In this document: in pieces, positions 1 to 30,612 of the stretch
How the letters are laid out: each line of letters begins with the position of its first letter
Position numbering within the stretch: position 1 is the first letter of the stretch
Made by a program: the position numbers and the translations under genes
From: Gammaproteobacteria bacterium
Lineage (GTDB): Bacteria; Pseudomonadota; Gammaproteobacteria; Eutrophobiales; Eutrophobiaceae
Assembly: GCA_003645215.1 (NCBI GenBank)
Contig: QNEM01000003.1
Span: forward strand, 1 to 39,128
Length of the DNA stretch: 39,128 nucleotides
Direction: 5' to 3'
Notes under the pieces: generated by a model
What the model saw: the letters and a program-made list of their open reading frames with translations, nothing else
The model's database searches: none
Told to the model about the DNA's origin: nothing

Positions 1-534
1 AGAACCCATCAGGCCTATTTGTTGTGTAGCGGTATCGTCAGCCCTGTTCATATGAGCAATACTGAAATCAGCGATTTTTACTTCCAGATTAACTTCAGCC
101 AGGATATTTGATGGTTTTATATCTCGATGAACGACACCCTGCTTATGCGCATAATCCAGTGCCTTGGCACACTTGAAGATAATTTCTACAACTTTTTCTA
201 TCGGCAAAAGATTTTCAGGTGTGCAGTAAGGTTTAAGTGTCCCGCCACCCTTGACCAGCTCCATGACGATGTAACAAACATCCTGATCCGTGCCGGCATC
301 AACAATACCAACGATATTGGGATGATTCAGGCTGCCCGCTGTGTGTGCTTCGTTGAAGAACATTTTCTTGTATTGATCACCGGATTCTTCATTTTCCAGG
401 GACTCGGTATGTGCGACCTTGATTGCTACACCACGATCAGTATATGGATCATGTCCCAGGTAGACCGTTCCCATACTGCCCCGGTCTATTTCACCTAACA
501 CATCGTATTTGCCCAGTTTTTCGGGGAAACTCAT
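1..534 (-). CDS. Hanks-type Ser/Thr protein kinase, N-terminal part (runs off the left edge); paralog of 3026..4318
   Basis: Not in the ORF track. Manual minus-strand translation from ATG at 534 gives MSFPEKLGKYDVLGEIDRGSMGTVYLGHDPYTDRGVAIK...NEAHTAGSLNHPNIV...YIVMELV...HRDIKPSNIL...KIADFSIAH...GLMGS, open to base 1. Kinase subdomains I-VII are present. Confidence 0.93.
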   Translation of the reverse strand, partial: MSFPEKLGKYDVLGEIDRGSMGTVYLGHDPYTDRGVAIKVAHTESLENEESGDQYKKMFFNEAHTAGSLNHPNIVGIVDAGTDQDVCYIVMELVKGGGTLKPYCTPENLLPIEKVVEIIFKCAKALDYAHKQGVVHRDIKPSNILAEVNLEVKIADFSIAHMNRADDTATQQIGLMGS

Positions 535-3025: not shown

Positions 3026-4318
3026 TTAATCCTCGTTCAGGACTTTTGCAGTTGTTAAAGAAAGCCTTTTCACCAGCGTCCTTAAAAACACCTTGTTAAA
3101 GTGTAACTGGCAGCCGACGGATAACTGATCGATCACGGTACTGTTAATTTTCAAAAGGCGTACTGCATCTTTTGCCTGAATCGTCGCTGTCCTTTCAGTA
3201 TTAGACAAATAACCCATTTCTCCGAAACAATCCCCTGCCTTAATAGTTCCAATGCGGGTAGTTTTTCGATAAACATCAACATCACCCGCAACAATTACAT
3301 AGAATGCCTCGTCGACATCTCCCTGAACCAAAACTTCCTGGCCTGCTTCATATTCCTGCCATACACATGACCGAATGATCTCCCAGATTTCTGCTTCTGA
3401 AAAACCCTGAAAAAATTCCAGTTGCTGAACCTGCGTAAATCTTTCCTTCTCATCAAGATCTTCCTCTGGCTCATCGAGATAATCAAATACCAGGCTCAAG
3501 TCTGCTGCCATATTCAAACCCATCTTGTAACGCCTCTCAGGGTTCTTTTGTAGCACATGATGAATAATTTTCTCGAAAATTTCCGGGATGTCAGAACGGT
3601 AACTTCTCAATGGCGGTGGTTGTTCATTCGTGATTTTATAAATCAAACGTGAAAAGCCATCCGCAGCGAAAGGATGTTTGCCAGTTAATAATTCGTACAA
3701 GACGATACCTAATGAGAACAAGTCCGTTTGATTTGTAATCATATCTTCCTGTACCTGCTCAGGAGACATATAACGAGGTGACCCAACGAAACCAGTCGGC
3801 ATGGTGCTCTCTGCTTCTTCAGTCATTAAATGCGCAATACTAAAATCACAAAATTTAACATCCATGTCTTTTGTCAGCAGTATGTTCGTGGGTTTGATGT
3901 CCCGATGCACGACCCCGATTCTATGTGCATAATCCAGCGCTTTTGCACATTTAAAAATGATTTGTACAACCTGCTCATATGACAAAAGATTATCAGGTTT
4001 ACAGTGTGGTTTTAAGGTGCCTCCACCTTCAACCAGTTCCATAACGATATAACAAACATCTCCTTCTGCACCAGCGTCCAGAATCTCAACAATATTTGGA
4101 TGTTTTAATTTCCCGGCTGTATGGGCCTCGTTAAAAAATGTTTTTTTGTAGCGTTCTGCGGTTTTTTTATTCTTGAATGTATGCGTATTGGCAACCTTCA
4201 GGGCAACACGATGATCAGTAAAAGGGTCATGCCCTTCATAGACCACACCCATACTGCCACGGCCCAGTTCTCTGATTACTTCATACTTCCCCAGTTTTTT
4301 CGGTATGTCAGTCGCCAT
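3026..4318 (-). CDS. Ser/Thr protein kinase with C-terminal cyclic-nucleotide-binding domain
   Basis: Kinase motifs LGRGSMGVVY, VALK, HRDIKPTN, DFS and GSPRYMSPEQ. The C-terminal GDCFGEMGYLSNTERTATIQA is a cNMP phosphate-binding cassette. Confidence 0.93.
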   Translation of the reverse strand: MATDIPKKLGKYEVIRELGRGSMGVVYEGHDPFTDHRVALKVANTHTFKNKKTAERYKKTFFNEAHTAGKLKHPNIVEILDAGAEGDVCYIVMELVEGGGTLKPHCKPDNLLSYEQVVQIIFKCAKALDYAHRIGVVHRDIKPTNILLTKDMDVKFCDFSIAHLMTEEAESTMPTGFVGSPRYMSPEQVQEDMITNQTDLFSLGIVLYELLTGKHPFAADGFSRLIYKITNEQPPPLRSYRSDIPEIFEKIIHHVLQKNPERRYKMGLNMAADLSLVFDYLDEPEEDLDEKERFTQVQQLEFFQGFSEAEIWEIIRSCVWQEYEAGQEVLVQGDVDEAFYVIVAGDVDVYRKTTRIGTIKAGDCFGEMGYLSNTERTATIQAKDAVRLLKINSTVIDQLSVGCQLHFNKVFLRTLVKRLSLTTAKVLNED

Positions 4319-4473: not shown

Positions 4474-5232
4474 ATGAAAACTATTATCCTTGCAGCTGGA
4501 ATTGGTCAACGCCTGGGAGATATTCCGGGCAACTCTTCGGAGAAAAAACCAAAATGCTTGCTGGAATTTGATGGCAGGAGCCTGTTACAAAGACATCTCG
4601 AGATCCTTCATCACTATGGCATTGATGACATCGTCATTATCACAGGTTTTGAATCCGATATGATTAAATCAACACTCTCCAGGATTGGTGCTGACCACGT
4701 TGATACTTGTTTTAACCCTGATTTCACCAAAGGTAGTATTTTAAGCATGTTATCAGGACTGAATACCCTGGAAGCAAGCCAGAATTTTATTCTGATGGAT
4801 GCTGATGTGCTCTACGATCACAATATTCTTGGCAGATTAATCAATTCGGACAAAGAAAATGTTTTCCTGCTGGATCAAGATTTCGAAATGGGAGAAGAAC
4901 CCGTGAAATTATGTGTTCGTAATGAGCATCTTGTCGAGTTCAGAAAACAACTGGATGAAAGTCTGGATTTTGATTTTATGGGTGAATCTGTAGGTTTCTT
5001 CAAATTCACCTCTGCAACAGGAAAACTACTTGGCTTAAAAGCAGCTGAATATGTTGACAAGGGTGAAGATGAGGCCCCTTACGAAGAAGTTATCAGGGAT
5101 TTGTTACTGGCTAAACCTGAGCAATACTCATTTGAAGATATATCAGGTTTACCCTGGCTGGAAATAGATTTTCCTGATGATGTTGTCAGGGCAAAGGATA
5201 TAATACTGCCAAAACTGACAGACTTGCCCTAG
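4474..5232 (+). CDS. LicC/PntC-like NTP transferase (putative phosphonate cytidylyltransferase)
   Basis: N-terminal IILAAGIGQRL..KPKCLL, central DAD and C-terminal WLEIDFPDD motifs. First gene of the pepM operon. Confidence 0.85.
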   Translation: MKTIILAAGIGQRLGDIPGNSSEKKPKCLLEFDGRSLLQRHLEILHHYGIDDIVIITGFESDMIKSTLSRIGADHVDTCFNPDFTKGSILSMLSGLNTLEASQNFILMDADVLYDHNILGRLINSDKENVFLLDQDFEMGEEPVKLCVRNEHLVEFRKQLDESLDFDFMGESVGFFKFTSATGKLLGLKAAEYVDKGEDEAPYEEVIRDLLLAKPEQYSFEDISGLPWLEIDFPDDVVRAKDIILPKLTDLP

Positions 5233-5269
5233 AACCATACACAAGGCCCATAGACAAGAACCATACACA
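5231..5269. repeat. 13-bp tandem repeat, three copies
   Basis: AGAACCATACACA / AGGCCCATAGACA / AGAACCATACACA, starting in the NTP-transferase stop codon and running towards pepM. Confidence 0.75.
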
Positions 5270-5304
5270 AAGACCGTAATTAAAAGCTACAAGCCAGAGT
5301 AAAA

Positions 5305-6942
5305 ATGACCCAGAAGAAACTAATAAGCAAAAGTGCAAAACTCCGCGCCTTACTCGAATCGGGTGAGCTTGAATTTATCATGGAGGCACATAATGGTATT
5401 TCTGCTCTAATTGTGGAAAAGGCCGGGTTTAAGGGGATTTGGGGCAGTGGACTATCAATGTCTGCACAATATGCGGTACGTGACAGTAATGAAGCCAGCT
5501 GGACCCAGGTCGTTGATATGCTGGAGTTCATGTCCGATGCAACAGAAATTCCAATTTTACTTGATGGTGACACTGGCTATGGCAATTTCAATAACATGCG
5601 CCGCCTGGTCAAGAAACTTGAGCAACGTGATATTGCCGGTGTCTGTATTGAAGATAAACTATTCCCGAAGACCAATAGTTTTATTGATGGCGAACGCCAA
5701 CCATTGGCCGAAGTGGATGAATTTTGTGGAAAGATTAAAGCCGGTAAAGACAGTCAGTACGATGAGGATTTTTGTATCATCGCCAGGGTTGAAGCACTGA
5801 TTGCTGGCTGGGGGATCGAGGAAGCACTGCGACGTGCCGAGGCTTATCACGAGGCCGGCGCAGATGGCATACTGATTCATAGCAAGCTGTCACAGGCAGA
5901 TGAAATTCTGGAATTTGCAGCCGAATGGGCAAACCGTTCCCCATTGGTAATTGTTCCAACAATCTATTACAGCACACCAACAGATATCTTCAGGAATGCA
6001 AATATTAGTCTGGTAATCTGGGCTAATCACATGATTCGTGCAGCAGTGGCTTCGATGGAGAAAATCTGTGCCGATGTTTATGCAAATGAATCGGTGGCCG
6101 GTGTTGAAGATAATATTGCGCCCGTGAAACAATTATTTTTCCTGCAAGGTGCGGCAGAGCTCAGCGAAGCTCAGGAACGTTATTTACGGCCTAAAGGCTC
6201 GGAAACCAAGGCCATTGTACTTGCTGCAAGTCGTGGTTTTGCACTCGGCGAACTCACTGAAGATAAACCTAAATTAATGCTTTCAATCGGTGGAAAAACT
6301 GTTTTACGTCGTTTGCTTGATGAATTTAAAAATCAGAATATCAATAAAGTGACGCTGGTTGCTGGTTATAAACCTGAGGCTATAGATACCAGTGGCATAG
6401 AGATGAAAATTAATAAGGATTATGAAACAACAGGTGAGTTAGCATCACTTACCCAGGTCGTCAGTGAATTTCATGATGACATGATTATCACCTATGGTGA
6501 CTTGCTGTTTCGTAGCTATATCCTCAGGGATTTGCTTGAAAATGAAGGTGAGATTGTTGCCGTCATTGACTCCTCTGTTGAGAATGATAATTACAGTGGC
6601 ACACCTGATTATGCTTATTGCTCACAGAAAGAAGACCGGGCCATATTCAAGCAGGATGCATATTTAAATCATGTCTCTGAAGAAAAAAATACTGCATCAG
6701 GCGACCCTACTGGTCGATGGATTGGCATGTTACGCGTACGAGGCCAGGGCAGGCAATGGATCGAAGATGCCATTGATGAATTAAAATCCCATGAAAACTT
6801 TAAGCAATTGTCCCTGGCCGATCTCCTGAACCAGTTAATCAAGACAAATCACCCTGTCAAAGTCCATTACATCAACGGTCATTGGGTTGATATCAATGCA
6901 TTGGCAGATATCGACCGTGCTGGCGACTTCACCAAGTTATAG
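5305..6942 (+). CDS. pepM: Phosphoenolpyruvate mutase fused to a C-terminal NTP-transferase domain
   Basis: Diagnostic EDKxxxxxNS motif ([10 protein letters not shown], 5650-5679), plus EAHNG and DGDTGYG. The C-terminal ~245 aa begin [10 protein letters not shown]...KPK, an NTP-transferase fold. Confidence 0.96.
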
Positions 6943-6966
6943 GCCAGATGTTTTGAGGGAAGGAAA

Positions 6967-8121
6967 GTGATAGAAGCAGGAGATTTTGTTGAGGCTGCAC
7001 GAGACTTGGGTTTCCAGCGCTATACGGGCGTGCCCTGCTCTTTCCTCACGCCCTTTATAAACTACGTTATCAATGATGAGTCTCTAAATTACGTGTCATC
7101 TTCAAATGAAGGTGATGCCATTGCTACAGCCGCAGGGGCAGCGATGGGCGGAGAAAGGTCTATCGCCATGATGCAGAACTCAGGACTGGGTAATGCTGTC
7201 AGCCCCATCACCTCACTAAGTTACGTGTTCCGCATTCCCATGATAATTATCACCACTCATCGTGGTGCACCAGGCATAACAGACGAACCCCAACATGAAT
7301 TAATGGGACAGATCACCGGTGAAATGTTCGATACCATGCGCATTCCATGGGAAACATTTCCTGTGGAAAAAGCAGACATTGCACCGGCATTAAAGCGTGC
7401 CTGTGAATTTATGGAAAAAGAACAAAGACCATACGGTTTTATTATGCAGAAAGGTACGATTTCTGCACATGAACTCAAAAACAATAGTCTTGTTGCGACC
7501 AAAAATACTGATATCGAGAAAAAGATATTCAATAAAAACAATGTGCCCCTGCTTAGCAGAAACGAGGCACTGAAAAAAATTATTGAACATACACCGGTTG
7601 AGAATTCTGTTGTCATCGCAACCACTGGATTTACGGGACGAGAGTTATTTGCCATTGATGACCGTAAGAATCAACTCTACATGGTCGGCTCCATGGGCTG
7701 TGCTTCTTCACTGGGCCTGGGCCTGGCACTGGCACGTCCTGATTTACAGGTAGTGGTGGTTGAAGGTGACGGGGCAGCACTGATGCGCATGGGTAATTTT
7801 GCAACTTTAGGCAGTTATGGCGGGGACAATCTCACGCACATCATCCTGGATAATGAAGTTCATGACTCAACCGGTGCACAAGCCACAGTCGCAAACAATG
7901 TGAAATTCGCAGAAATCGCTGCTGCCTGTGGTTATGCCGTGACTTACCAGGGCAATGATATTGAATTGATAGAACAATTATTTAATTGTAAGAAACAGGC
8001 AGGTGCAAAATTTGGGCACCTCAAGATTTCAGCGGGGGCAATTGAAAATCTGCCTCGACCTGATGTCACACCGGTTGAGGTCTTGCAAAGACTGATGCAA
8101 CATATCGACACGAGTTTCTAG
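6967..8121 (+). CDS. ppd: Phosphonopyruvate decarboxylase (ThDP-dependent)
   Basis: TGVPCS, NEG, MQNSGLGN, DEPQH, MVGSMG and the GDGAALM...DNEVHDSTG ThDP motif. GTG start after GAGGGAAGGA; follows pepM. Confidence 0.95.
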   Translation: MIEAGDFVEAARDLGFQRYTGVPCSFLTPFINYVINDESLNYVSSSNEGDAIATAAGAAMGGERSIAMMQNSGLGNAVSPITSLSYVFRIPMIIITTHRGAPGITDEPQHELMGQITGEMFDTMRIPWETFPVEKADIAPALKRACEFMEKEQRPYGFIMQKGTISAHELKNNSLVATKNTDIEKKIFNKNNVPLLSRNEALKKIIEHTPVENSVVIATTGFTGRELFAIDDRKNQLYMVGSMGCASSLGLGLALARPDLQVVVVEGDGAALMRMGNFATLGSYGGDNLTHIILDNEVHDSTGAQATVANNVKFAEIAAACGYAVTYQGNDIELIEQLFNCKKQAGAKFGHLKISAGAIENLPRPDVTPVEVLQRLMQHIDTSF

Positions 8122-8123
8122 TT

Positions 8124-8171
8124 AGTCGCACTTGTGCCTCCATGCACCCGCGACATACATTATATCCATGT
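8124..8171 (-). repeat. Intergenic hairpin element, related to the copy at 30682..30713
   Basis: The reverse complement of 8124-8155 (TGTCGCGGGTGCATGGAGGCACAAGTGCGACT) matches 30682-30713 at 25/32 positions. Nested stems GTCGC/GCGAC and GTGC/GCAC. Confidence 0.7.
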
Positions 8172-8186
8172 TAATAACAAAATATT

Positions 8187-9266
8187 ATGTCTGAAATATT
8201 ATTAAATCCCGGCCCTGTAGTCCTCAGCGAGCGTGTTCGTAATGCCATGTTGCGTCCTGATCTATGTCATCGTGAAACAGAGTTTGTTGAATTACAAAAT
8301 AGCATTCGCCATGATTTATTAAACGTCTATCCCCTGCCTGAAGATAAATGGGCCGCAATATTAATGACCGGCTCTGGCACCGCTGCGATGGAAGCCATGA
8401 TGACCAGCCTGGTACCTGACCACGGCAAGGTCCTGATTATTGAAAATGGTGTCTATGGAGAACGCCTGAGCAAGATTGCAGAAATTCATCAGATTAATCA
8501 CATGCGCTTACACCATGAATGGGGGGCAGCCATCGACCTGAAACTGCTCGAAGACGAACTACAGTACAAAGAAGGATTCAGTCATGTTGCTGTGGTCCAT
8601 CACGAAACTACAACAGGGCGGTTGAATGATCTGGCAGGTATAGCGGCAGTCTGCGCAAAATATAATTTACCTATCCTGTTGGATGGTGTCAGTAGTTTTG
8701 GTGCCGAGGATATTGAATTTGAAGACTGGAATATCATTGCCTGTGCTGCCACAGCCAATAAATGTTTACATGCTGTGCCCGGAACCTCGTTTGTCATTTG
8801 CAACAGGAATGCGCTCGATGTCATGCAAGCAACACCGCCTAGAACGCTCTATCTTGATCTCTCCAGCTATTTGAAAAATCAGGATGCAAATGGCACACCT
8901 TTCACGCAATCGGTGCAAACCTTCTACACGCTTGCTGAGGCCCTGAAAGAATTACAGGATCAAGGCGGCCAGAAGAAACGCCAGCAAAGCTACTGGCATA
9001 GACTGAATATTGTCAGAGAAGGTCTAGACAAACTGGGGATCGATGCCTTGATGCAGGTGGAAGAATGTTCCTGTGTCCTCAATGCCTTTCATTTACCAGA
9101 TGGCATTGACTACCAAAGATTACATGATGAACTCAAGAAAAACGGGTTTGTTATCTATGCTGGACAGGGTGACCTGTCAAAAACACTTTTCAGAATTTCA
9201 TGTATGGGGGAAATATCTGATCAGGAGTTGGAAAGGTTTGTAAACGTAATGGGGAGTATTGTCTAA
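8187..9266 (+). CDS. aepZ: 2-aminoethylphosphonate aminotransferase (class V PLP; AepZ/PhnW family)
   Basis: LLNPGP, GSGTAAME, NGVYGER, HHETTTG, DGVSSFG, ANKCLH (PLP lysine) and GFVIYAGQG. The pepM-ppd context suggests the biosynthetic direction. Confidence 0.92.
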   Translation: MSEILLNPGPVVLSERVRNAMLRPDLCHRETEFVELQNSIRHDLLNVYPLPEDKWAAILMTGSGTAAMEAMMTSLVPDHGKVLIIENGVYGERLSKIAEIHQINHMRLHHEWGAAIDLKLLEDELQYKEGFSHVAVVHHETTTGRLNDLAGIAAVCAKYNLPILLDGVSSFGAEDIEFEDWNIIACAATANKCLHAVPGTSFVICNRNALDVMQATPPRTLYLDLSSYLKNQDANGTPFTQSVQTFYTLAEALKELQDQGGQKKRQQSYWHRLNIVREGLDKLGIDALMQVEECSCVLNAFHLPDGIDYQRLHDELKKNGFVIYAGQGDLSKTLFRISCMGEISDQELERFVNVMGSIV

Positions 9267-9270
9267 CTAA

Positions 9271-11200
9271 CTACACGCTCTTGATTTTAGCACTCTGCTT
9301 ATGCTCACCCAGGTGATGCCGAATAAATTCCAACAAGCCTTCCTTATTCATACCAACATCATTGAGCATGTCATCTCTGGAACCGTGCTGTATTAGTCGA
9401 TCTGGCAAGCCATAATTTACAATTGCCTGTACCACACCATTCTCAGACAAAACCTGGCTCACTGCTTCTCCTGCACCACCTTCAATCACATTATCTTCCA
9501 CTGTGACTATCAAATCATGGGTTGCAGCCATATTCAGGATCAGTTCTTCATCCACAGGTTTGACAAAACGCATATTGACCACAGTTGCGCCAAGTTCATC
9601 ACCCGCTGCCTGTGCAATGTCCAGCACCACCCCAAAAGCAAGGATAGCAACCCGTTTGCCCCGGGATCGTACTTCAGCCTTACCAATTGGCAGAGCAGTC
9701 ATTTCTTTTTCGACCTCAACACCAGGCCCACCACCCCTTGGATATCGTACTGAGGCTGGACCATCAATTTGAACTCCGGTATAGAGCATTTGCCGACATT
9801 CATTTTCGTCTGCGGGCGCCATGATGACCATGTTCGGCAGACAACGCATAAATGAAATATCGTAACAACCATTATGGGTCGGACCATCGGCACCAACGCA
9901 ACCGGCACGATCAATGGCGAATAACACCGGAAGATTCTGTAACGACATCATGAATCAATTGATCATAGGCACGCTGCAGAAATGTGGAATAAATCGCAAC
10001 GACAGGTTTCAGGCCGTCACAGGCCATGCCCGCTGCAAGGGTGACGCTATGCTGTTCCGCAATACCAACATCGAAATAGCGATCAGGAAACTTTTGTTCA
10101 TATTCAACCAGACCAGATCCCTCGCGCATGGCCGGCGTTATTGCAACCACTCGTTTATCCATCGCGCTGATATCGCAAATCCAGTCACCGAATATTTTGC
10201 TATAGGTGGGTGCGGATGGTTTTCCAGATGGCACAATTCCCTTCACAGGATCAAATGCAGTCACACCATGATATTTGATTGGTTCGGCTTCTGCCGGTGC
10301 ATAGCCTTTACCTTTTTTGGTAATAATATGGAGAAATTGAGGCCCCTTTAATTCGTGAATACCTTTCAGGGTTGATATCAGCGTGGGTAGATCATGTCCG
10401 TCAACTGGGCCAATGTAGTTAAAACCAAATTCCTCAAATAAAATGCCCGGGGTCAATAATCCTTTGACATGCTCTTCTGCATACCTGGCGATATCCAGCG
10501 CATTAGGTACTTTGGACAGGACTTTCTTACTCCCGTCTTTAACTGTTTTATAGAGTTTCCCTGAAAGGATCTGGGCAAATCGGTTCGAAAGAGCGCCTAC
10601 GTTTGGCGAGATCGCCATATTATTGTCATTCAATATAACCAGCAGGTCGGCACCCACATCACCTGCATTATTCAGGGCCTCAAAGGCCATACCTGCTGTC
10701 AGGCCACCATCACCAATAATGGCAACTGATCTTCTCTGGCTGCCCGTTTGTCTGGCAGCAATTGCCATACCCAGTGCTGCACTGATCGATGTGCTCGAAT
10801 GTCCAACACCAAAGGCATCATATTCGCTCTCTGCACGCTTGGGGAAAGGCGAGACACCATCCCATTGACGTATGGTGTGCATCTGATCTTTCCGGCCCGT
10901 CAAGATTTTGTGGGGATATGCCTGGTGACCCACATCCCACACCAGATTATCATCAGGGGTGTTGTAGATGTAGTGAAGTGCGATGGTGAGCTCAATTGTG
11001 CCCAGTCCTGCGGCAAAATGACCACCACTTTGACTGACAGAATAAAGCAGGAACTCCCTGAGTTCTTTTGCCAATGTTTCCAGGTCTGATTCTGCTAGCT
11101 TACGCAGGTCTGCCGGGCTATTGACCTTATCCAGTAAGGGTGTACTGATTGTCATAACTGACTTTTGACCTGTTTCTTGATTATTATTTGAACTCATCAC
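9271..11200 (-). pseudogene. dxs: 1-deoxy-D-xylulose-5-phosphate synthase split by a frameshift near 9943 (true pseudogene or sequence error)
   Basis: ORF 9911..11200 has [25 protein letters not shown] and AMREGSG. ORF 9271..9951 continues [19 protein letters not shown]. The junction reads GAT GTC G TTA CAG AAT instead of the expected D-V-A-L-Q-N. Start may be 11155, 11197 or 11200. Confidence 0.9.
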
Positions 11201-11386
11201 AAACTTTTATTAAGGAAAGCCTTGCATTATGTAGTTGCCCCATTTGCCTTGCAAGAACATTATATTGCAAATAGAAACATTATATTTAACTAATAAACAG
11301 GATGCTCGGCCCTTAAGGCCTTCATTTTATGAGCAATTTAGGGCAAAATGATGCGTTGCCAGAAAGAACAATAACCGGAGTCAAGC

Positions 11387-12517
11387 ATGGCCGTTCCACT
11401 CATACAACAATATCGAATCGCAAAATACATAATCGGACAGAAACTTCGTCGCGTGGAGAAGTATCCGCTGGTATTAATGCTTGAGCCTTTATTTCGATGC
11501 AACCTCACTTGTGCTGGATGTGGCAAGATTGATTACCCGGAAGAAATACTGGACAAACGTTTGAGCTATGATGAATGCATGGAAGCCATCGATGAGTGTG
11601 GTTCACCAATGGTATCTATTGCCGGTGGTGAACCCCTGATTCACAAGGAAATGGCCAAAATTGTTCATGGTTTTATTGATAGAAAGAAATTTGTATATTT
11701 ATGTACCAATGCGCTGCTGCTGGAAAAACGCATGGCAGACTATTCCCCGTCACCCTATCTGACTTTTTCAATCCACCTGGATGGCAACGAAATGCGACAC
11801 GACAACTCCGTTTGTCGTGAAGGAGTCTTCAAGAAATGTGTTGAAGTCATCAAACAGGCACGTTCCAGGGGTTTTCGTGTAACCATTAATTGCACGCTGT
11901 TTCAGGGAGAAACTGCCGATGAAATTGCTGAATTCATGGACATGGCGATGGAACTCGGTGTTGAAGGTGTCACCATTTCTCCAGGATACAGTTACCAACA
12001 TGCACCAGACCAGGAATCGTTCCTGAAGAACCAGGAAAGCAAACAACTGTTCCGTGATTTATTCAAACTTGGTAAGGGTTTGAAATGGCGTTTTAACCAG
12101 TCTTCACTTTACCTCGATTTCCTCGCAGGGAACCAGAGTTACCAGTGCACGCCCTGGGGCAACCCGACGAGGAATGTCTTTGGCTGGCAAAAAGCCTGCT
12201 ATCTACTGGTTGACGAAGGCTACACCACCTCATTTAAAAGCATGCTGGCAGAGACTGAATGGGATAATTACGGCAAGGGCCGTAATCCTAAATGTGCCAA
12301 CTGCATGGTACATTGTGGATTTGAAGCATCAGCGATTAACGATACATTCAGGAATCCATTGAAAGCACTGAAAGTTGCTATTCAAGGCCCTAATACTGAA
12401 GGACCCATGGCACCTGAACTACCTGTCCTGTACAAAGATCAACCTGCGGTTGTTGCCGAACATGTCATTCACCAACAACCCACGGCCTCTTGTAGCTCGC
12501 AAAAAGAAATCGCCTAG
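11387..12517 (+). CDS. hpnH: Adenosylhopane-forming radical SAM enzyme HpnH
   Basis: YPLVLMLEPLFRCNLTCAGCGKIDYP (CxxxCxxC), GGEPL, CTPWGNPTRN and CANCMVHCGFE are characteristic of HpnH. Confidence 0.92.
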   Translation: MAVPLIQQYRIAKYIIGQKLRRVEKYPLVLMLEPLFRCNLTCAGCGKIDYPEEILDKRLSYDECMEAIDECGSPMVSIAGGEPLIHKEMAKIVHGFIDRKKFVYLCTNALLLEKRMADYSPSPYLTFSIHLDGNEMRHDNSVCREGVFKKCVEVIKQARSRGFRVTINCTLFQGETADEIAEFMDMAMELGVEGVTISPGYSYQHAPDQESFLKNQESKQLFRDLFKLGKGLKWRFNQSSLYLDFLAGNQSYQCTPWGNPTRNVFGWQKACYLLVDEGYTTSFKSMLAETEWDNYGKGRNPKCANCMVHCGFEASAINDTFRNPLKALKVAIQGPNTEGPMAPELPVLYKDQPAVVAEHVIHQQPTASCSSQKEIA

Positions 12518-12627
12518 AGGCCTAAGCAATGGCCAGTGTGTCATGGAATGGAGCCTGTTGGCCCCCGGCCTGGTCATACTTCAGGCAGCCCCCTATGACA
12601 CATAAACACTTTTCAGAGAGTAATTTT

Positions 12628-13296
12628 ATGGTTTCATTCGAAAACGCGAGAAAATTTTCATATTGGCCTGTTCCATTACTGCAGTTTTTCATGGCCAGCA
12701 TGTTCCTCGTATTGAGTCAGTCAGCATTCACTGAAGAAACGACAGATGATTCATATACTGGAGCTATTGAAGTTGTTGAACAATTGCATACGGTCCTGCT
12801 CAGGGTCATGCAAGCGGGAGACTCCATGGAATTCTCTGAACGTTATTCAATCCTGGATCCCGTAATTACAGAAAGCTTTGACACACCTGTGATTGCCAAA
12901 GTCATTTTAAGCCGATACTGGAAAGATCTAACACCACAACAACAGGAAGATTTCATTCTTCTTTTTAACCAACAGACTGTCGCCACATATGCATCCAGGT
13001 TTGACGGCTTTAATGATGATGTATTCACGACAATCAAAGTTGAACAATTAAAAAAGGGCCGGATTTTAGTGCGGACTGAAATCCGTAGTGGCAATGATAG
13101 CCCGGTTAAACTGGATTATCTGATGCATAAAAATAATGAGCAATGGCTCATTATCAGCGTCATCGCCGATGGGGTGAATGACCTGTCACTCAAACGTGCT
13201 GAGTACTCAACAGTTGTTAAAGAAAATGGATATGAGTACCTTGTCACAAATATTGGAATAAAGATTACAGACATGGAGAGCCAGAAGGAAAAGTAA
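12628..13296 (+). CDS. HpnM/MlaC (Ttg2D)-like periplasmic lipid-binding protein
   Basis: Signal-like hydrophobic N-terminus, then ILSRYWKDLTPQQQEDF...TYASRF and LDYLMH...WLIISVIADGVNDLSLKRAEY. Start uncertain (12595, 12628 or 12691); downstream of hpnH. Confidence 0.8.
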   Translation: MVSFENARKFSYWPVPLLQFFMASMFLVLSQSAFTEETTDDSYTGAIEVVEQLHTVLLRVMQAGDSMEFSERYSILDPVITESFDTPVIAKVILSRYWKDLTPQQQEDFILLFNQQTVATYASRFDGFNDDVFTTIKVEQLKKGRILVRTEIRSGNDSPVKLDYLMHKNNEQWLIISVIADGVNDLSLKRAEYSTVVKENGYEYLVTNIGIKITDMESQKEK

Positions 13297-13376
13297 TTTG
13301 TGAATGTTACGATTATATGTCAACATCACGCGTTCAATTAATGCAGTTGGTCAGGCAAGTTTAACAAACAGAACCA

Positions 13377-14171
13377 GTGAAAAAATCAACTAAAATCAAA
13401 GCATTACCAATAATCTTCGCGCTACTTCTTGTTAGTCTGGCGTCAGGCTGTGCCTCCACCCAAACCAAAGGTATTGAGACCAACAACGACACGCTTGAAC
13501 CCGTGAACAGGGCTTCATTCAGCTTAAATGAAACATTGGATAATTACATAATAAAACCAATTGCAGAGCCCTATGCAAAATATACACCCGAAGTTTACAG
13601 GTCAGGTATTACAAATTTCTTTAATAACCTCTCATACCTGAATGTTGTCCTGCATTCTTTCCTCCAGGGCAAGTTCGGACAGGGCTTCTCCGGGATAACA
13701 CGTTTTGTTGTCAATTCCACGATTGGAATAGGAGGATTAAACGATATAGCGACGCCAATGGGCCTGCCAAAACATAATGAAGATTTTGGGCAAACACTGG
13801 CCACCTGGGGTGTCGGTCAGGGATCATACCTGGTCATACCTTTAAATGGCCCGAATACTGTTCGTAATACGCCCGATATGGTCACCAGCACCCTTTTGAA
13901 TCCGTTCTTTTACATCTCAAGCGCAATACTATGGCCGGTTACAGCTCTTAACCTCATTAACACCAGGGCCAACCTGTTAGAAGCAACCAGTATCCGTGAT
14001 GAAGCCGCCATCGAACCTTACACTTTCACGCGTGAAGCCTATCTTCAACATCGTCAGAATTTGATCTACGACGGTAATCCCCCCCTGGAAGGTTATGACG
14101 AAATCTTTGACGATGACTTTGAAGACGATGGGGATGGCTCCTCTGATAGCGCCACGTTAAGTATTGAATAG
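13377..14171 (+). CDS. VacJ/MlaA-family lipoprotein
   Basis: Lipobox LASGC, EPVNR, RFVVNSTIGIGGL, EDFGQTLATWGVGQGSYLVIP, YTFTREAYLQHR and an acidic tail. Confidence 0.92.
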   Translation: MKKSTKIKALPIIFALLLVSLASGCASTQTKGIETNNDTLEPVNRASFSLNETLDNYIIKPIAEPYAKYTPEVYRSGITNFFNNLSYLNVVLHSFLQGKFGQGFSGITRFVVNSTIGIGGLNDIATPMGLPKHNEDFGQTLATWGVGQGSYLVIPLNGPNTVRNTPDMVTSTLLNPFFYISSAILWPVTALNLINTRANLLEATSIRDEAAIEPYTFTREAYLQHRQNLIYDGNPPLEGYDEIFDDDFEDDGDGSSDSATLSIE

Positions 14172-14366: not shown

Positions 14367-15593
14367 TCAGGATTGAATGTCCTCCTCTAAAATTTCAATC
14401 CAGTGTTTGACAGGGATTTCGGTTGCCTGCTGTAGATGCAGTTGGCAACCGATATTAGCAGTCAAAATTACATCCGGTTTCACCGCCTCCATTGCACTGA
14501 TTTTTTTTCTTCGTAATTTTTCAGACAGTTCAGTTTGTAACAGTGAATATGTTCCAGCTGAACCACAGCATTGGTTTGCATCTTCAATATCATCTATTTG
14601 ATAGCCGAGTTTTTTCAGCAAAACTTCCGTATCATCTTTTATTTTTTGACCATGCTGTAATGAACAGGGATTCTGAAAAGCATAGCTCTTCGTACTCACC
14701 TTGATTATTTTCCGTAATTTCTCGATCTTTTCAGAGACAATTATTTCTCCAACATCCTTTGCCATCATTGAAACCTGACGTGCTTTGTCTTTATAGTCAA
14801 TATCATTCCTTAAAATATAACCATAGTCCTTTATCATGGCGCCACAGCCACTGGCTGAAATGACAATGGCCTCAATCCCTTCCTCAATGTATGGCCACCA
14901 GGCATCAATATTGTTTTTTATAAATGACAAGCCACTATCATCAACGGCCATATGATGATTGATAGCACCACAACATACTTCACCATGACTGCTTATTGTT
15001 TCAATTCCAAGCTTGTCTAATAAGTTCGTTGTTGCACAATTTGTTTCAGGTGAGAGTGATGGTTGTACGCAGCCTGAAAATAAAATCATTTTGCGTTGAT
15101 AACTGGCTGATTCTGTTTTTCTGATACGCTTGTTTTCAGGAACCATCTGACGATACTTGCCTGGCAATATAATCCTGACTCCTCTTCCCAACCTGAGAAA
15201 AAAGGAAAACCTCCCCGGATAAGGCAGGATGTTTCTGATTAAATAGCGATAGACTCGTTGAATGGGAGTTCGCCTGACTTTTTTGTTAATCAGCTGTCTA
15301 CCAATATCCAGAAGATGTCCATATTCAACACCCGATGGACAGCTGGTTTCGCAAGCAAGACAGGTGAGACATCTATCAAGATGTATTTGAGTTTTATCAC
15401 TGGCTTCACTTCCTTCCAGCAAACCCTTGATCAGATAAATCCTGCCTCTGGGTCCGTCCAGTTCATCTCCCAGTAATCTGTAAGTTGGACAGGTCGCAGT
15501 ACAAAAACCACAATGCACACAACTCCGCAGTATTCTTTCTGCTTCAACACCTTCGGTTGTTGTCTTTATTGCTTTATCAATATTCGTTTGCAT
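14367..15593 (-). CDS. glcF: Glycolate oxidase iron-sulfur subunit
   Basis: CVHCGFCTATCPTY..ELDGPRGRIYL, CLTCLACETSCPSGV and two CCG domains. Confidence 0.93.
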   Translation of the reverse strand: MQTNIDKAIKTTTEGVEAERILRSCVHCGFCTATCPTYRLLGDELDGPRGRIYLIKGLLEGSEASDKTQIHLDRCLTCLACETSCPSGVEYGHLLDIGRQLINKKVRRTPIQRVYRYLIRNILPYPGRFSFFLRLGRGVRIILPGKYRQMVPENKRIRKTESASYQRKMILFSGCVQPSLSPETNCATTNLLDKLGIETISSHGEVCCGAINHHMAVDDSGLSFIKNNIDAWWPYIEEGIEAIVISASGCGAMIKDYGYILRNDIDYKDKARQVSMMAKDVGEIIVSEKIEKLRKIIKVSTKSYAFQNPCSLQHGQKIKDDTEVLLKKLGYQIDDIEDANQCCGSAGTYSLLQTELSEKLRRKKISAMEAVKPDVILTANIGCQLHLQQATEIPVKHWIEILEEDIQS

Positions 15594-15600
15594 ATAAAAT

Positions 15601-16677
15601 CTAGAATTTCTTGTAAAGTCGACCCCGATTCAGAATTCTCTTCGGGTCAAAGGCATTTTTCAAGGCAACATGCAGATGTTCTATGCCTGTAGATAATGGC
15701 TGAAAAATTTCACCATCCCGATCTCCTCCTCGAAACAATGTGGCATGACCACCAGCTTTACCTGCAACATTACGTATTTGTTCCAGGGGCTCTGATGTTA
15801 TTAACCAGCGTTGTGCCCCACCCCACTCAATAAGCCATTGGCCTTGAAGATTTATTTCTTCTGTTGTCGAAGGAACCGAGAGTCGCCATAGATTTCTGGA
15901 ATCCGAGGAAAAATCATCCGCAAAATAATTATCTTTATGCTCTCGCAATGACTGCCAGTAGTTCTCTCCATCAGGGTACTCTGATAGAGGAAACTGGCTG
16001 GCTGCAGCAAGTACAGCACTTTTATGTCCGGACAGGCGAATATAAATATTGCCGTCATGAAAACTTGTAGCAGAGACTGGAACAGACTGTCCCGCCCATT
16101 TGTTCATAAGTTGAATTGCTGTAGCAAGATCTGATTCACCCTTAAGTGTGAGCTCATATTCCGGTTCTGGTAACACTTTCAATGAAACTTCCAGTAACAC
16201 GCCTAGTGTCCCCATCGCTCCTGTCATCAGCCTTGATACGTCATAGCCGGCGACATTCTTCATTACCTGACCACCAAAATTTAGTATTTCAGCCTTACCA
16301 TTCAGGCACTTGAGACCAAGCACAAAATCCCTTACAGCACCTACATAAGGGCGGCGTGGACCAGATAATCCACAGGCAACCATCCCGCCTGCAGTCGCAT
16401 TTGTGGCAAAACATGGAGGTTCGAATGCCAGCATCTGCTTTTCCTTGGCCAGAACTTCGTTAATTTCTGAAATCGTGGTGCCAGCCCGGACTGTGATGAC
16501 TAACTCGGTAGGTTCATAAGATATAACACCTGCATTTGCCGAGACATCAAGTATTTCACCTTTTATTTTGCGGCCATAAAATGCCTTGGACCCACCACCT
16601 TGTATGCATAGAGGTGTCTCTGCTACATAAGCATCCTGTATATGTTGCTGGTATTGTTGAACTAATTCCCCGGTCAA
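15601..16677 (-). CDS. glcE: Glycolate oxidase FAD-binding subunit GlcE
   Basis: YEPTELVITVRAGT, GLSGPRRP, FGGQVMKNVAGYDVSRL, IEWGGAQRW and FDPKRILN. TTG start. Confidence 0.93.
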   Translation of the reverse strand: MTGELVQQYQQHIQDAYVAETPLCIQGGGSKAFYGRKIKGEILDVSANAGVISYEPTELVITVRAGTTISEINEVLAKEKQMLAFEPPCFATNATAGGMVACGLSGPRRPYVGAVRDFVLGLKCLNGKAEILNFGGQVMKNVAGYDVSRLMTGAMGTLGVLLEVSLKVLPEPEYELTLKGESDLATAIQLMNKWAGQSVPVSATSFHDGNIYIRLSGHKSAVLAAASQFPLSEYPDGENYWQSLREHKDNYFADDFSSDSRNLWRLSVPSTTEEINLQGQWLIEWGGAQRWLITSEPLEQIRNVAGKAGGHATLFRGGDRDGEIFQPLSTGIEHLHVALKNAFDPKRILNRGRLYKKF

Positions 16678-16690
16678 AATCTTTTCCTAG

Positions 16691-18139
16691 TCAAAATCTT
16701 TCCAGGTCCGCATGAGGAAGTTTGCCCTGATGAACATGCATTGCTCCAAATTCTGCACATCTGTGCAGGGTGGGGATGGCCTTTCCTGGATTAAGTAGTC
16801 CTTTCGGATCAAAGGCGCTTTTTATGGCGTGGAACTGTAAAAGTTCTTCGGTATTAAACTGCACACACATCTGGTTGATTTTCTCGACACCGACGCCATG
16901 TTCACCAGTGATGGTACCGCCGACTTCTACACAGATCTCCAGTATTTTTCCACCTAGCTCTTCGGCTCGTTCCTGCTCACCTTCAATACTGACATCATAC
17001 AAAATAAGCGGATGTAAATTTCCATCGCCTGCGTGAAAAACATTCACAACACCCAGATGATATTGTTCGGCTAAATCATTAATCATGTTTAACACACTGC
17101 CGATGTGTTTTCTTGGAATTGTGCCGTCCATACAATAATAGTCAGAAGCAATACGACCCACGGCAGGAAATGCTGACTTGCGCCCTGCCCAGAATATTTC
17201 ACCTTCAGCTTTATCTCTGGCAACTCGCACCTCACTGGCACCGGCAGCCTTCAATATAGCTTCTACCTTACGGCACTCTGAATCGACTTCTTCTGCTGCA
17301 CCATCAATCTCACAAATTAATATTGCTGCTGCATCCACCGGGTAACCAGCATGCAGATAATCCTCCACCGCCCGAATACATGCATTATCCATCATCTCCA
17401 GACCAGCAGGAATGATTCCTGAAGCAATTATCCCGGCGACACTGTCTCCAGCTGCTTCTACTTCATCAAATGCTGCAAGCAGTACTTTGTTGCAGAGTGG
17501 TTTACTTAATAACTTAAGCGTAACTTCCACTATCACTCCTAACATACCTTCAGAGCCTGTAATCAGTGCCAGTAAATCATATCCAGCCGAGTCTAATGAT
17601 TCGGCACCTATCTCAACCAGTTCGCCGGTGACAGTAATTAATTTAACCGCCATGATATTATGTACCGTTAAACCATATTTTAAGCAGTGAACACCCCCTG
17701 AGTTTTCCGCGACATTACCGCCGATGGTGCATGCAATTTGAGAAGAGGGATCGGGTGCATAGAATAAATCGTATTTTTCTGCTGCTTCCGAGACACAAAT
17801 ATTTCGGACACCTGGCTGGACTCGAGCCGTCCTTTGGTGAGGATCCACCTCGATAATTTCATTAAATCTAGCCAGGCTCAGCAACAGCCCATCGGCAACA
17901 GGCATAGCCCCACCAGAAAGCCCTGTACCAGCACCCCTGGCAACGACGGGAACATTTTCCTGATAACAAAGCTGCATTATTGCCTGTACTTGCTCCACGT
18001 TTTCAGGCAAAACAACGCATAGAGGCAATTGTCGATACGCTGAGAGGGCATCGCATTCATACGCTCGCAACAATTCCTCATCAGAGATGATTAATTCTTT
18101 GGCTATTTGTGTCTTTAATTTATCTACAAACAATGACAT
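16691..18139 (-). CDS. glcD: Glycolate oxidase FAD-linked subunit GlcD
   Basis: RGAGTGLSGG, YAPDPSSQIACTIGGNVAENSGGVHCLKYG, HAGDGNLHP and GEHGVG. Confidence 0.95.
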   Translation of the reverse strand: MSLFVDKLKTQIAKELIISDEELLRAYECDALSAYRQLPLCVVLPENVEQVQAIMQLCYQENVPVVARGAGTGLSGGAMPVADGLLLSLARFNEIIEVDPHQRTARVQPGVRNICVSEAAEKYDLFYAPDPSSQIACTIGGNVAENSGGVHCLKYGLTVHNIMAVKLITVTGELVEIGAESLDSAGYDLLALITGSEGMLGVIVEVTLKLLSKPLCNKVLLAAFDEVEAAGDSVAGIIASGIIPAGLEMMDNACIRAVEDYLHAGYPVDAAAILICEIDGAAEEVDSECRKVEAILKAAGASEVRVARDKAEGEIFWAGRKSAFPAVGRIASDYYCMDGTIPRKHIGSVLNMINDLAEQYHLGVVNVFHAGDGNLHPLILYDVSIEGEQERAEELGGKILEICVEVGGTITGEHGVGVEKINQMCVQFNTEELLQFHAIKSAFDPKGLLNPGKAIPTLHRCAEFGAMHVHQGKLPHADLERF

Positions 18140-22900: not shown

Positions 22901-23805
22901 TAAATCTTGCTGAAAATATATCTGATAATGAAGATAAGGAATATGAAATTTATCCAGCTTCAATACCTCCACTTGACATCGAAGTCTCGGAATTATCCTA
23001 TAATGGCAACAATCTGGGCCGCTTGCTTCTTACAAGTTCAAAAACAATTGATGGTCTAACAGTTGATAATATAAATATTAGCAAAACAGACATCGAGATA
23101 GATGGCTCAGGCATCTGGAATCTTGTCAATCATGAGCACCATTCAAAGTTTAACCTGACGCTCAATGCTACATCAATGGCAACTATGCTGGAAACATTTG
23201 CTTATGATATTTCACCAATTGAAAAGGGAGTAACAAGCCTGACTCTGGATGCCCAATGGCCAGGGACACCCATGGATTTCTCTCTTTCAAATCTGGATGG
23301 AACACTGTATATGGAAGTCGATAAAGGTCGATTTATTGAGATAAATCCATCAGCCGGAAGATTATTTGGACTATTGAGTCTGCAGACCCTGCCCAGGAGA
23401 CTGTCACTTGATTTTTCTGATCTGTTTGGTAAAGGCCTTGCATTTGATTCAATTGAAGGTCGCTTCAATATAGAAGATGGCAATGCCTACACCAATAATC
23501 TGGCCATGACGGGCCCATCAGTAAACATCAACATCTCGGGCAGGACAGGTCTTGTTGAACAAGACTATGATCAAATAGCAACAGTTACACCACAGATTAC
23601 TGATAGCTTACCTGTTGCCAGTGCTTTATTTGGACCTGTTGGTATTGGCGTTGGTGCAATTATATTTCTGGCAAGCGAAATATTTCAATCTTTACCAGAC
23701 AAGATTAATACATTGTTACGCAAACAATATACCATCACTGGTGCATGGGACGAGCCGCAGGTGACAAAAATAAAGAAAGCAAAGGAAGATAAAGATAAGG
23801 GGTGA
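19936..23805 (+). CDS. yhdP: YhdP-type AsmA-like bridge lipid-transport protein
   Basis: 1289 aa with a single N-terminal TM segment (RLALP). C-terminal GRLFGLLSLQTLPRRLSLDFSDLF..GLAFDSIEG and YTITGAWDEP; directly after rng. Confidence 0.9.
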   Translation: MFKRIYHFFLYSFAFVILTSAILITVIRLALPGIGGYSQQTQDWISQYMDYPVEISSIDADWNSWTPNLRLHQVSILDPASNEHILDFGSVLISIDIYKSLVKNEIIPRTITVSGLSMTLIRRQDGSVTATKYLPDDFSEKQLDDDALAKWFLVQKNILVKKAQITLLDLKDEDAPPLLLSDATLRIRNNDYRTQIEGSAVLPGSYGHILDFALDASGDVLTPEWSGEVYFAGKDINISPLFSKIEALDIENHEGTGDIKLWSTWNRAKLRNIEGQVKLKNLKLADKESEIYINQIEGNFSASRRTDKGIEVSLDLQKLVTPNGEWPETVISLKKIYIHEHDKYRYIASASYLDLDNIDSFLDIFSDLSEEFYPSDDFNITGILQNSLIKYDPTLEDDKRIYIDTEFLHLGGSFRDHPLKLDGLYGQLQGTRKEGSIHIESSTAQLDLKEFLANSLTFYELNTELNWQYHNNNLVLSTEQFDTHTQDFDLNIKGNLRFDEEAESPFLNLLVELSDAEVETVSKYLPKNSPEKSKRWFKRALVSGKIPSAEFVFRGRPKDYPFRDNDGVFQGYAEVNLETLDYHPLWPPADGINAGIMVSGDTVTIDVQSGYFFNAEITGVSAVIKDLSIKGSKKSVALKTHINGDMKDFLLFIKNSPLKKTPSLKNLPSRNFTGGMGIDLAMEIPLFPSQILFNGSLTLRDATFSRDDIKIELTDLNGRIDFSRGFISAKGMKANFFNSPVELAMENRHGFPSRTTLTGTADNQFISAQLLRYLPWLEPYKSEIEKRINGSCSWEVSQINAEPDSGLKVNEQFVLTSSLTGLSIDVPAPLAKTVEPAAFKLSIRYPELNKREVTLDYANILNGLIHASDINDEKSVITSLSFGDKATIGIESHQYSINGDIDQIDAGDWIKFISDISDIEKEKKKKDIALGIQVGSLELGRQIFSDVNLKIEDIVDGFHFNLTADDIAGDFYLKHINDSNNLKINLQKLNLAENISDNEDKEYEIYPASIPPLDIEVSELSYNGNNLGRLLLTSSKTIDGLTVDNINISKTDIEIDGSGIWNLVNHEHHSKFNLTLNATSMATMLETFAYDISPIEKGVTSLTLDAQWPGTPMDFSLSNLDGTLYMEVDKGRFIEINPSAGRLFGLLSLQTLPRRLSLDFSDLFGKGLAFDSIEGRFNIEDGNAYTNNLAMTGPSVNINISGRTGLVEQDYDQIATVTPQITDSLPVASALFGPVGIGVGAIIFLASEIFQSLPDKINTLLRKQYTITGAWDEPQVTKIKKAKEDKDKG

Positions 23806-24238: not shown

Positions 24239-24242
24239 TTAT

Positions 24243-24872: not shown

Positions 24873-24874
24873 GT

Positions 24875-25473: not shown

Positions 25474-25476
25474 ACC

Positions 25477-30563: not shown

Positions 30564-30583
30564 CAACAGCAGGTTAAAAAAAT

Positions 30584-30612
30584 AAAAGGGGCGGTTCTCA
30601 CCGCCCTTTTTT
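30584..30612 (+). terminator. Rho-independent terminator of acnB
   Basis: AAAAGGGGCGGT-TCTC-ACCGCCC-TTTTTT, about 20 bp after the stop codon. Confidence 0.85.

Follow-up and report, generated by a model that had tools for sequence, protein, structure and literature searches.

What becomes of the 2-aminoethylphosphonate (AEP) that a gammaproteobacterial operon appears equipped to make, when that operon ends 4 bp from an isoprenoid gene and lies close to genes for hopanoid side-chain synthesis? The operon is found in a stretch of 39,128 bases (here called the window), which is the whole of contig C3 of a metagenome-assembled genome (2.45 Mb in 389 contigs, 83% complete, 2.5% contamination). The relatives of the window are uncultured Gammaproteobacteria, and DNA near-identical to it is contained in metagenome runs from sediment and from hydrothermal vents, no RNA run being listed for the stretch. 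Our analysis suggests that, on balance, the window probably carries one half of a split 'Group 1 phosphonolipid' system, the half that makes the head group, and that this system probably acts in hopanoid tailoring; cytidine monophosphate-activated AEP (CMP-AEP) would be transferred onto an extended hopanoid. Genes were called from a list of open reading frames (ORFs) together with Pfam and NCBIfam scans, with NCBIfam scores set against curated cut-offs, and those that bear on the question are the following:

4474..5232, plus strand: NTP1, a free PntC-like cytidylyltransferase (NTP_transf_3; PF12804, 57.3 bits)
5305..6942, plus strand: phosphoenolpyruvate mutase (PepM/Ppm) fused to a second NTP_transf_3 domain (TIGR02320, 394.6 bits, cut-off 319.55; PF13714 and PF12804)
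6967..8121, plus strand: phosphonopyruvate decarboxylase, Ppd (TIGR03297, 443.8 bits, cut-off 312.5)
8187..9266, plus strand: AEP aminotransferase of the AepZ/PhnW type (TIGR03301, 391.7 bits, cut-off 360.8)
9271..11200, minus strand: dxs, 1-deoxy-D-xylulose-5-phosphate synthase (TIGR00204, 634.4 bits for the N part and 254.5 bits for the C part)
11387..12517, plus strand: hpnH, radical-SAM adenosyl-hopene transferase (TIGR03470, 540 bits, cut-off 225)
12529..13296, plus strand: hpnM, MlaC-family periplasmic lipid-binding protein (TIGR03481, 167.3 bits, cut-off 160.1; PF05494, 125 bits)
13377..14171, plus strand: MlaA/VacJ-family outer-membrane lipoprotein (PF04333, 230.3 bits)

The first-pass annotation of this DNA had described an AEP pathway with two cytidylyltransferase-type domains that ends 4 bp from dxs, with dxs in turn divergent from hpnH, hpnM-like and vacJ-like genes; the ORFs and the Pfam and NCBIfam scans bear this out, every gene lying where it had been placed, and the same two scans agree with its caveat that the window holds no transferase gene. 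To judge from family membership, PepM, Ppd and AepZ make AEP, and PepM carries the Ppm-specific EDKxxxxxNS motif ([10 protein letters not shown] at residue 116). The two cytidylyltransferases, one free and the other fused to PepM, appear to be of the LicC/PntC type: the best PDB match of NTP1 is the AEP cytidylyltransferase PntC Tde1415 of Treponema denticola (6PD1/6PD2; E 5e-12; residues 3-248, the whole domain), and the best solved relative of the PepM-fused C-terminal domain is LicC (1JYK; E 2.9e-8). A preference for AEP over phosphocholine or sugar phosphates is putative, what bears on it being the sequence similarity to 6PD1 and 1JYK.

On the hopanoid side, dxs is convergent with the AEP operon (4 bp from the AepZ stop codon) and divergent from hpnH across a spacer of 186 bp. 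Family membership likewise indicates that Dxs feeds the isoprenoid pathway and that HpnH, for which the genome has one gene, initiates the C35 side chain. The hpnM and mlaA genes of the window are extra paralogues, a second MlaC-like gene (23% identity) being present on contig C26 and a second MlaA gene (40% identity) on contig C106, and the hpnM-mlaA pair also comes after hpnH in the loci of relatives. An HpnB-type family-2 glycosyltransferase (TIGR03469, 405 bits; L008:12381-13535) lies between hpnH and hpnM in most relatives and is absent from locus L011 and from the window, where 11 bp separate the end of hpnH (12517) from the start of hpnM (12529).

The first-pass annotation had also pointed beyond the window, to hpnL, hpnN, shc, hpnG and genes for a CDP-alcohol phosphotransferase (CAPT) or LicD. 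The rest of the genome does contain hpnL, hpnN and CAPT genes (on contigs C319, C374 and C2), squalene-hopene cyclase (shc) and hpnG are represented by a C-terminal fragment and a below-cut-off homologue, respectively, and LicD was not found in this 83% complete genome. The shc match, at the end of the 2.6-kb contig C374, is weak (29 residues only, 39 bits) and is followed by the hpnG-like gene (172 bits, just below the cut-off of 187) and then by the start of hpnN (an N-terminal fragment, 153 bits). Contig C2 ends in hpnI-hpnJ-hpnK (411, 765 and 345 bits, all above cut-offs), and after hpnK, on the same strand, comes CAPT1, a CDP-alcohol phosphotransferase of 201 residues that holds the full catalytic motif DxxDGxxAR...GxxxDxxxD. 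On contig C319, hpnL (TIGR03476, 255 bits) is divergent from a second such gene, CAPT2, and two relatives (L097 and L137) have the order CAPT2, hpnL, hpnI, hpnJ, hpnK, CAPT1. Five PF01066 genes are present in the genome, two of them flanking hpnLIJK genes. In loci related to CAPT1, hpnI, hpnJ or hpnK lies directly upstream in 61 of 63, and all three are present in 49 of the 63. A PhnY*-like dioxygenase of the PhyH family is encoded on contig C285 beside gloA and is 49% identical to the copy in a cyanobacterial cluster described below. The AEP genes, both CAPTs and the flippase-like gene each adjoin hopanoid genes; the dioxygenase does not.

This set of functions matches a family already described from bacterial genomes. 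According to the account of it by Li and Horsman (2022; PMC8942020), 'Burkholderiales_CDP-OH', which corresponds to the 'Group 1 phosphonolipids' of Yu et al. (2013), is the commonest ppm neighbourhood in RefSeq (318 of 882; 36%), with a seven-gene core of a Ppm-PntC fusion, Ppd, an AEP transaminase, an alpha-ketoglutarate oxygenase, a second PntC and two phospholipid-type genes; the same account predicts a phosphonolipid product and knows of no phosphonolipid characterized from the family. The window holds four of the seven, namely the motif-bearing Ppm fused to a PF12804 PntC, Ppd, the AEP transaminase and the free PntC, but has neither the alpha-ketoglutarate/Fe(II) oxygenase nor the CDP-OH phosphotransferase nor the flippase-like gene. 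All seven functions are encoded in the genome as a whole but are dispersed, the flippase-like gene being of the PF03706 type, and its transferases and flippase-like gene are the hopanoid-operon versions, 28-42% identical to the Group-1-type copies in Nostocales and in the gammaproteobacterial locus L082 (38-42% for CAPT1). We regard the window cassette as a split variant of this known family, whose product lacks identification in that account (PMC8942020). Whereas the literature treats the family as a maker of glycerophosphonolipids, we propose that here it modifies hopanoids. Such a link is not wholly new, being hinted at in print for Nitrosococcus (GCF 731), likewise a gammaproteobacterium with AEP and hopanoid genes, where squalene synthase and cyclase genes beside AEP genes were termed a 'possible phosphonoterpene' (PMC8942020) and the cluster bears only the antiSMASH label 'phosphonate-terpene' in a second paper (PMC7285500). 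The comparison is by description only, and the one sentence that each of these papers gives to the cluster offers no survey, transferase candidate or chemistry.

In the reading that we favour, one or both cytidylyltransferases would make CMP-AEP, and the PhnY*-like dioxygenase elsewhere in the genome may give CMP-1-hydroxy-AEP instead. The enzymes encoded by hpnH, hpnG, hpnI, hpnJ and hpnK would lead to bacteriohopanetetrol, its glucosamine and its cyclitol ether, all of them hydroxyl-rich acceptors. The genome encodes HpnH, HpnI, HpnJ and HpnK with scores above cut-offs, plus the extra CAPT after hpnK, for which we know of no described role. CAPT1 (after hpnK) or CAPT2 (beside hpnL) would then transfer the phosphonyl group to a hydroxyl of a bacteriohopanepolyol, either bacteriohopanetetrol or its glucosamine or cyclitol-ether derivative, and the resulting zwitterionic, phosphonate-capped hopanoid could be carried to the outer membrane by the flippase-like HpnL together with HpnN, HpnM and the MlaA paralogue. 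IPCT/DIPPS (4MND) and AF2299 (4O6M) offer a parallel, a small membrane CDP-alcohol phosphotransferase with the same catalytic motif working there alongside a cytidylyltransferase, but the likeness is weak (E 1.9e-5, for 4O6M, and 1e-3) and their substrates are inositol phosphates. For the more narrowly defined product of a phosphonate-capped bacteriohopanepolyol, in which AEP or 1-hydroxy-AEP would form an ester with bacteriohopanetetrol or with its cyclitol ether, we put the chances as even, donor, acceptor and product being predicted from the enzyme families and the linkage of their genes. To our knowledge, no hopanoid head group with phosphorus or a C-P bond has been reported.

The evidence that carries this reading is how often, and in what company, this type of PepM occurs. 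PepM was scored in 400 of the 401 genomes of an even sample of the class, and 27 of them have a full-length PepM at least 57% identical to that of the window, which we take as its clade. HpnH was present in 25 of these 27 as against 34 of the 373 others (Fisher p 3e-21, a value overstated by kinship), and after removal of three genomes of the window's own order and four flagged as unpublished (G474, G730, G742 and G576) it was still present in 18 of 20. Five genomes with a PepM of 44-52% identity had no HpnH. Outside the order, eight genomes from four families have PepM and HpnH within 10 kb of each other, one has them 20 kb apart and another 2 Mb apart, and in the rest they are on different contigs.

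The same data bear on an ordinary phosphonolipid, in which AEP or hydroxy-AEP would be carried by diacylglycerol or another non-hopanoid lipid and the hopanoid genes would lie nearby because both belong to a single programme of outer-membrane remodelling and trafficking, with common regulation and common export by HpnN, HpnM and MlaA. Co-regulation of this kind predicts co-occurrence and adjacency equally well. The family is, moreover, predicted to make phosphonolipids, with a CDP-OH transferase assigned to 'phospholipid biosynthesis' in the account already cited (PMC8942020). The CAPTs of the genome have NCBIfam matches of 50-67 bits to phosphatidylinositol-phosphate and archaetidylinositol-phosphate synthases (in the PDB, AF2299, 4O6M, E 1.9e-5), enzymes that act on CDP-activated glycerolipids, and the linkage of PepM to HpnH can be broken, as it is in nine genomes of the order. 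An independent glycerolipid would not, however, need HpnH, to whose genomes the cassette-type PepM is almost confined, and the CAPTs lie inside hopanoid operons (in the overlapping frames hpnN-CAPT-hpnA of L082 and after hpnK in the loci related to CAPT1) and not beside glycerolipid genes; other PepM clades that have a weak CAPT-like neighbour of their own show no hpn linkage. A co-exported ordinary phosphonolipid therefore explains most of the linkage, but less well the near-restriction to HpnH genomes and the overlapping hpnN-CAPT-hpnA frames, and we consider it a serious though rather unlikely explanation.

Within the window's own order, which comprises 126 species genomes in 34 genera and one family, PepM scores over the cut-off in 104 genomes, HpnH is present in 117 and a CAPT homologue (E<=1e-20) in 103. 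PepM occurs without HpnH only in two incomplete genomes (63% and 89% complete), and HpnH without PepM in nine, including G016, G017 and G031, which are near-complete; in genus g13 the identical three of nine genomes carry PepM, HpnH and CAPT. When six PepM fragments are counted in, 108 genomes have both PepM and HpnH. The distance between them is 4.8-13.2 kb in 64 of these; another nine have them far apart on one contig, and 35 on different contigs. Conservation within the order proves little on its own because kin share synteny and housekeeping neighbours are conserved too, and taken alone these data show only that the PepM-HpnH arrangement is old.

More can be learned from distant lineages. 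Among 429 PepM relatives, the 80 best gave cassette loci for survey (61 non-cyanobacterial and 19 cyanobacterial), in which NTP1 is present in 60 of 61 and 19 of 19, respectively, and immediately upstream of PepM in 79 of the 80. HpnH is found in 33 of the 61 non-cyanobacterial loci, and some hpn or CAPT gene in 40; where at least 8 kb is available downstream of PepM, HpnH is present in 30 of 41. The 19 cyanobacterial loci, all from Nostocales, have the four-gene cassette with a PepM 65-68% identical to that of the window, with HpnH in 11 and any hpn or CAPT gene in 16. The genes of L023 are, in order, hpnI, B12-radical-SAM, CAPT, PhnY*-like dioxygenase, NTP1, PepM-NTP, Ppd, AepZ, Rieske-like, hpnH, hpnA, TnpB and hpnG-like, so that here, as in L028, the cassette sits between a hpnI/B12-radical-SAM/CAPT/dioxygenase side and a hpnH-hpnA-hpnG side. 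Candidate carriers in culture of a cassette placed among hpn genes are Nostoc sp. ATCC 43529, Scytonema sp. HK-05 or PCC 10023, and Nostocales HT-58-2. Cassette-adjacent HpnH proteins of Nostocales are 74-92% identical to other cyanobacterial HpnH and 51-53% identical to that of the window, which marks them as native and rules out, from the identity matrix, that hpnH was transferred into cyanobacteria together with the cassette. In a maximum-likelihood tree of PepM (midpoint root only, backbone unresolved), cyanobacterial cassette PepM and proteobacterial PepM fall together in a single clade (22 rows, support 100/99) and a second cyanobacterial PepM clade stands apart (7 rows, 100/100). It follows from the native HpnH and this tree that the cassette has moved between phyla, in each of which it adjoins the resident hopanoid genes.

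The complete set occurs in a single run in L082, a gammaproteobacterial metagenome-assembled genome in which hpnD-like, shc, hpnG, hpnN, CAPT, hpnA, flippase-like and 2-oxoglutarate oxygenase genes are contiguous and continue into NTP1, PepM-NTP, Ppd, AepZ, dxs, hpnH, hpnB, hpnM and mlaA; its CAPT shares 4 bp with hpnN and 25 bp with hpnA. Alphaproteobacteria show a third arrangement. NTP1 homologues of 38-43% identity occur in five alphaproteobacterial genomes, and both neighbourhoods that were retrieved fall inside hopanoid clusters; that of G126 interleaves flippase-like, hpnN, CAPT, class-V aminotransferase, Ppd, dioxygenase, amidohydrolase, NTP1, hpnA, hpnH, hpnG, shc, hpnD-like and hpnB. 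Loss of adjacency in related genomes, which had been named at the outset as evidence that would count against a hopanoid link, is thus not what the genomes show: PepM and HpnH are near each other in 64 of the 73 genomes of the order that have both on one contig, and the association recurs in Nostocales and Alphaproteobacteria. The earlier suggestion that the AEP acceptor is a membrane lipid, conceivably an extended hopanoid, accordingly gains support at the genomic level from conserved linkage, and we incline towards it.

Several loci depart from the common cassette. Ten (L043, L046, L062, L065, L066, L073, L078, L080, L081 and L083) have Ppd followed by dxs with no AepZ match; in these, phosphonoacetaldehyde may be converted to the product by a different route, or the aminotransferase may be encoded at another site. 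The 12.3-kb cyanobacterial locus L160 (G157:C78) has a cassette-type PepM-NTP (64% identical) with no adjacent match to NTP1, Ppd or AepZ. Cassette-adjacent HpnH is interrupted in two genomes (G794:C31:59428-60383, with one TGA and one TAA, and split; G114:C2:38534-39289, with four in-frame TGA codons), and these may be decaying copies or assembly errors.

The distribution just described also bears on whether AEP decorates a glycan, a lipopolysaccharide or a protein, the dxs/hpn neighbourhood then being inherited synteny with no functional meaning. In Pnt/Lic-type tailoring, as set out for Tde1415 and Ari1348, LicC-fold cytidylyltransferases, often fused to Ppm, activate AEP, most characterized bacterial AEP is on glycans, and PntC enzymes are described in glycan contexts (Rice et al., 2019; PMC6697681). 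The housekeeping neighbours of the cassette are equally conserved, and in G126 PepM-NTP lies away from the hopanoid genes, its neighbours being the NeuB, CMP-sugar cytidylyltransferase and sugar aminotransferase genes of a nonulosonic-acid glycan cluster. Pnt/Lic pathways, however, pass the head group to glycans through LicD-type transferases, and the candidates in the present genome are CDP-alcohol phosphotransferases, LicD not having been found in this 83% complete genome. Nor did the Pfam and NCBIfam scans find a glycosyltransferase or polysaccharide gene adjoining the cassette in the window. Synteny without meaning is also hard to square with an association that recurs in three lineages, in different gene orders and with native hpnH, and that is strong with HpnH across the class; we therefore judge glycan decoration improbable.

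A further explanation would separate the two halves, with NTP1 and the hopanoid-linked CAPTs using a non-phosphonate substrate (a CDP-activated polyol or a phosphorylated hopanoid intermediate) to give a phospho-hopanoid and with AEP as a separate product. The best NCBIfam match of NTP1 is the inositol-1-phosphate cytidylyltransferase half of IPCT/DIPPS (70.9 bits), and hpnLIJK-CAPT1-CAPT2 sets occur in Alphaproteobacteria away from PepM. Genome G128 has the order dioxygenase-NTP1-hpnA-ispH-hpnH-hpnG-shc and yielded no PepM at E<=1e-50 (its completeness is not established), and since it has NTP1 and the dioxygenase with no detected PepM, these two may act on something other than a phosphonate. 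On the other side, the best solved relative of NTP1 is the AEP-specific PntC, the gene is placed directly upstream of PepM in all but one of the cassette loci, and the hopanoid cluster of G126 holds Ppd and an aminotransferase together with NTP1 and CAPT. A non-phosphonate substrate seems to us very improbable.

For a phosphonate-capped hopanoid itself, a number of observations weigh on the negative side. G128 is one, and another is the presence of CAPT1 in Alphaproteobacteria whose PepM-NTP sits in a nonulosonic-acid glycan cluster. For the nine genomes of the order that have PepM and HpnH far apart on one contig, including the complete, same-genus G081 and G083, the distance is 46 kb to 2.3 Mb, and PGI, the kinase gene described below, glcDEF and RNase G are likewise conserved neighbours. 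Seven non-cyanobacterial cassette loci and one cyanobacterial locus have full flanks with no hpn gene at all, and two genomes of the class sample (G749 and G828) have the cassette PepM and no detectable HpnH. A search of the genus to which the window belongs found no Group-1-type paralogues of CAPT or flippase, leaving CAPT1 and CAPT2, which are 33-42% identical to them, and at E<=1e-20 no CAPT is seen in three PepM-positive genomes that are 92-98% complete (G005, G011 and G086). The reading also does not account for there being two cytidylyltransferases, and full-text literature searches, outside which lay the supplements of PMC8942020, found no description of a phosphonate-bearing hopanoid. 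Finally, in a survey of 301 evenly drawn genomes from the cyanobacterial order of L023, PepM was present in ten and HpnH in eight of these, and the two were adjacent in only one (G131).

That last survey also defines the reach of the claim. Eight of the nine neighbourhoods other than that of G131 belong to the other PepM clade (49-54% identity) and have no hpn neighbours, though most of these genomes have hopanoid genes, and because of this unselected survey we narrow the claim to one PepM clade. The hopanoid association is specific to one PepM clade with a free PntC, and it recurs in three lineages with different gene orders and native hopanoid genes. In the other cyanobacterial clade, three loci (L164, L165 and L167) have a weak CAPT-like match (29-32% identity) 4-7 kb downstream and no hpn genes, and these look like a separate phosphonolipid-type cluster. 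CAPT1 was also considered as a strict marker of PepM, a use that is not upheld, given G005, G011 and G086, which have no CAPT1, and the Alphaproteobacteria that carry CAPT1 with PepM elsewhere or not found.

One feature of the window needed correction. As assembled, dxs appears as a pair of ORFs that overlap (9911-11200 and 9271-9951, covering positions 3-405 and 399-615 of the TIGR00204 model), with a 2-bp deletion behind 9940 relative to five relatives. For three runs (X1, which may be the source sample, X2 and X3), independent assembly is provided by Logan contigs; these have 'AC' behind 9940, which restores the frame, and are otherwise identical to the window over 9700-10200. Because the contigs of three runs carry both missing bases, the break is an assembly error, and a pseudogene is ruled out, the deletion being absent from five relatives as well as from those contigs. 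With the two bases restored, dxs is intact and encodes a full-length TIGR00204 protein; a search of the 83% complete genome found no second dxs.

Upstream of the cassette lies one further gene that may touch on the system:

3026..4318, minus strand: Ser/Thr protein kinase with a C-terminal cyclic-nucleotide-binding domain (Pfam Pkinase, 188.6 bits; cNMP_binding, 57.8 bits)

This kinase gene (STK) is divergent from the AEP operon, and the order PGI-STK-NTP1 is kept in most gammaproteobacterial loci. We regard it as a conserved neighbour and possibly a regulator, its membership in the system being putative. A second kinase fragment is present at the start of the window (1-534), and in a same-genus genome hpnL has genes for an FHA protein and for a PP2C phosphatase on its upstream side (L090:3104-4677); Ser/Thr phosphorylation may thus control both the AEP and the hpnL loci. 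Further downstream in the window, glcDEF (glycolate oxidase; 14367-18139) comes directly after the mlaA paralogue, followed by YhdP, an AsmA-like lipid transporter (19936-23805). The region 23828-25974 holds only small Mrp/Mnh antiporter subunits (MnhB, MbhD/E-like and MnhE) on the minus strand, interrupted by an unassigned plus-strand ORF, with none of the large subunits nearby, and 27855-35800 holds a glyoxylate-shunt set of aconitase B, isocitrate dehydrogenase, AceK and isocitrate lyase.

Hopanoids belong to the major membrane lipids and serve as geological biomarkers. Of the gammaproteobacterial species sampled, 27 of 400 (about 7%) have the PepM clade of the window. If a phosphonate-capped hopanoid is indeed made, a product could be named for a large orphan gene family, the commonest ppm neighbourhood (36% of those in RefSeq; PMC8942020), and the most abundant predicted 'phosphonolipid' family would be a hopanoid-tailoring system across Gammaproteobacteria, Alphaproteobacteria and Nostocales. 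It would also add a class of lipids in which a triterpenoid carries a C-P bond and which standard hopanoid work-ups would not pick up, and the hopanoid repertoire would gain a hydrolysis-resistant head group containing both phosphorus and nitrogen. For marine and sediment environments, such a compound would represent a lipid sink for phosphonate.

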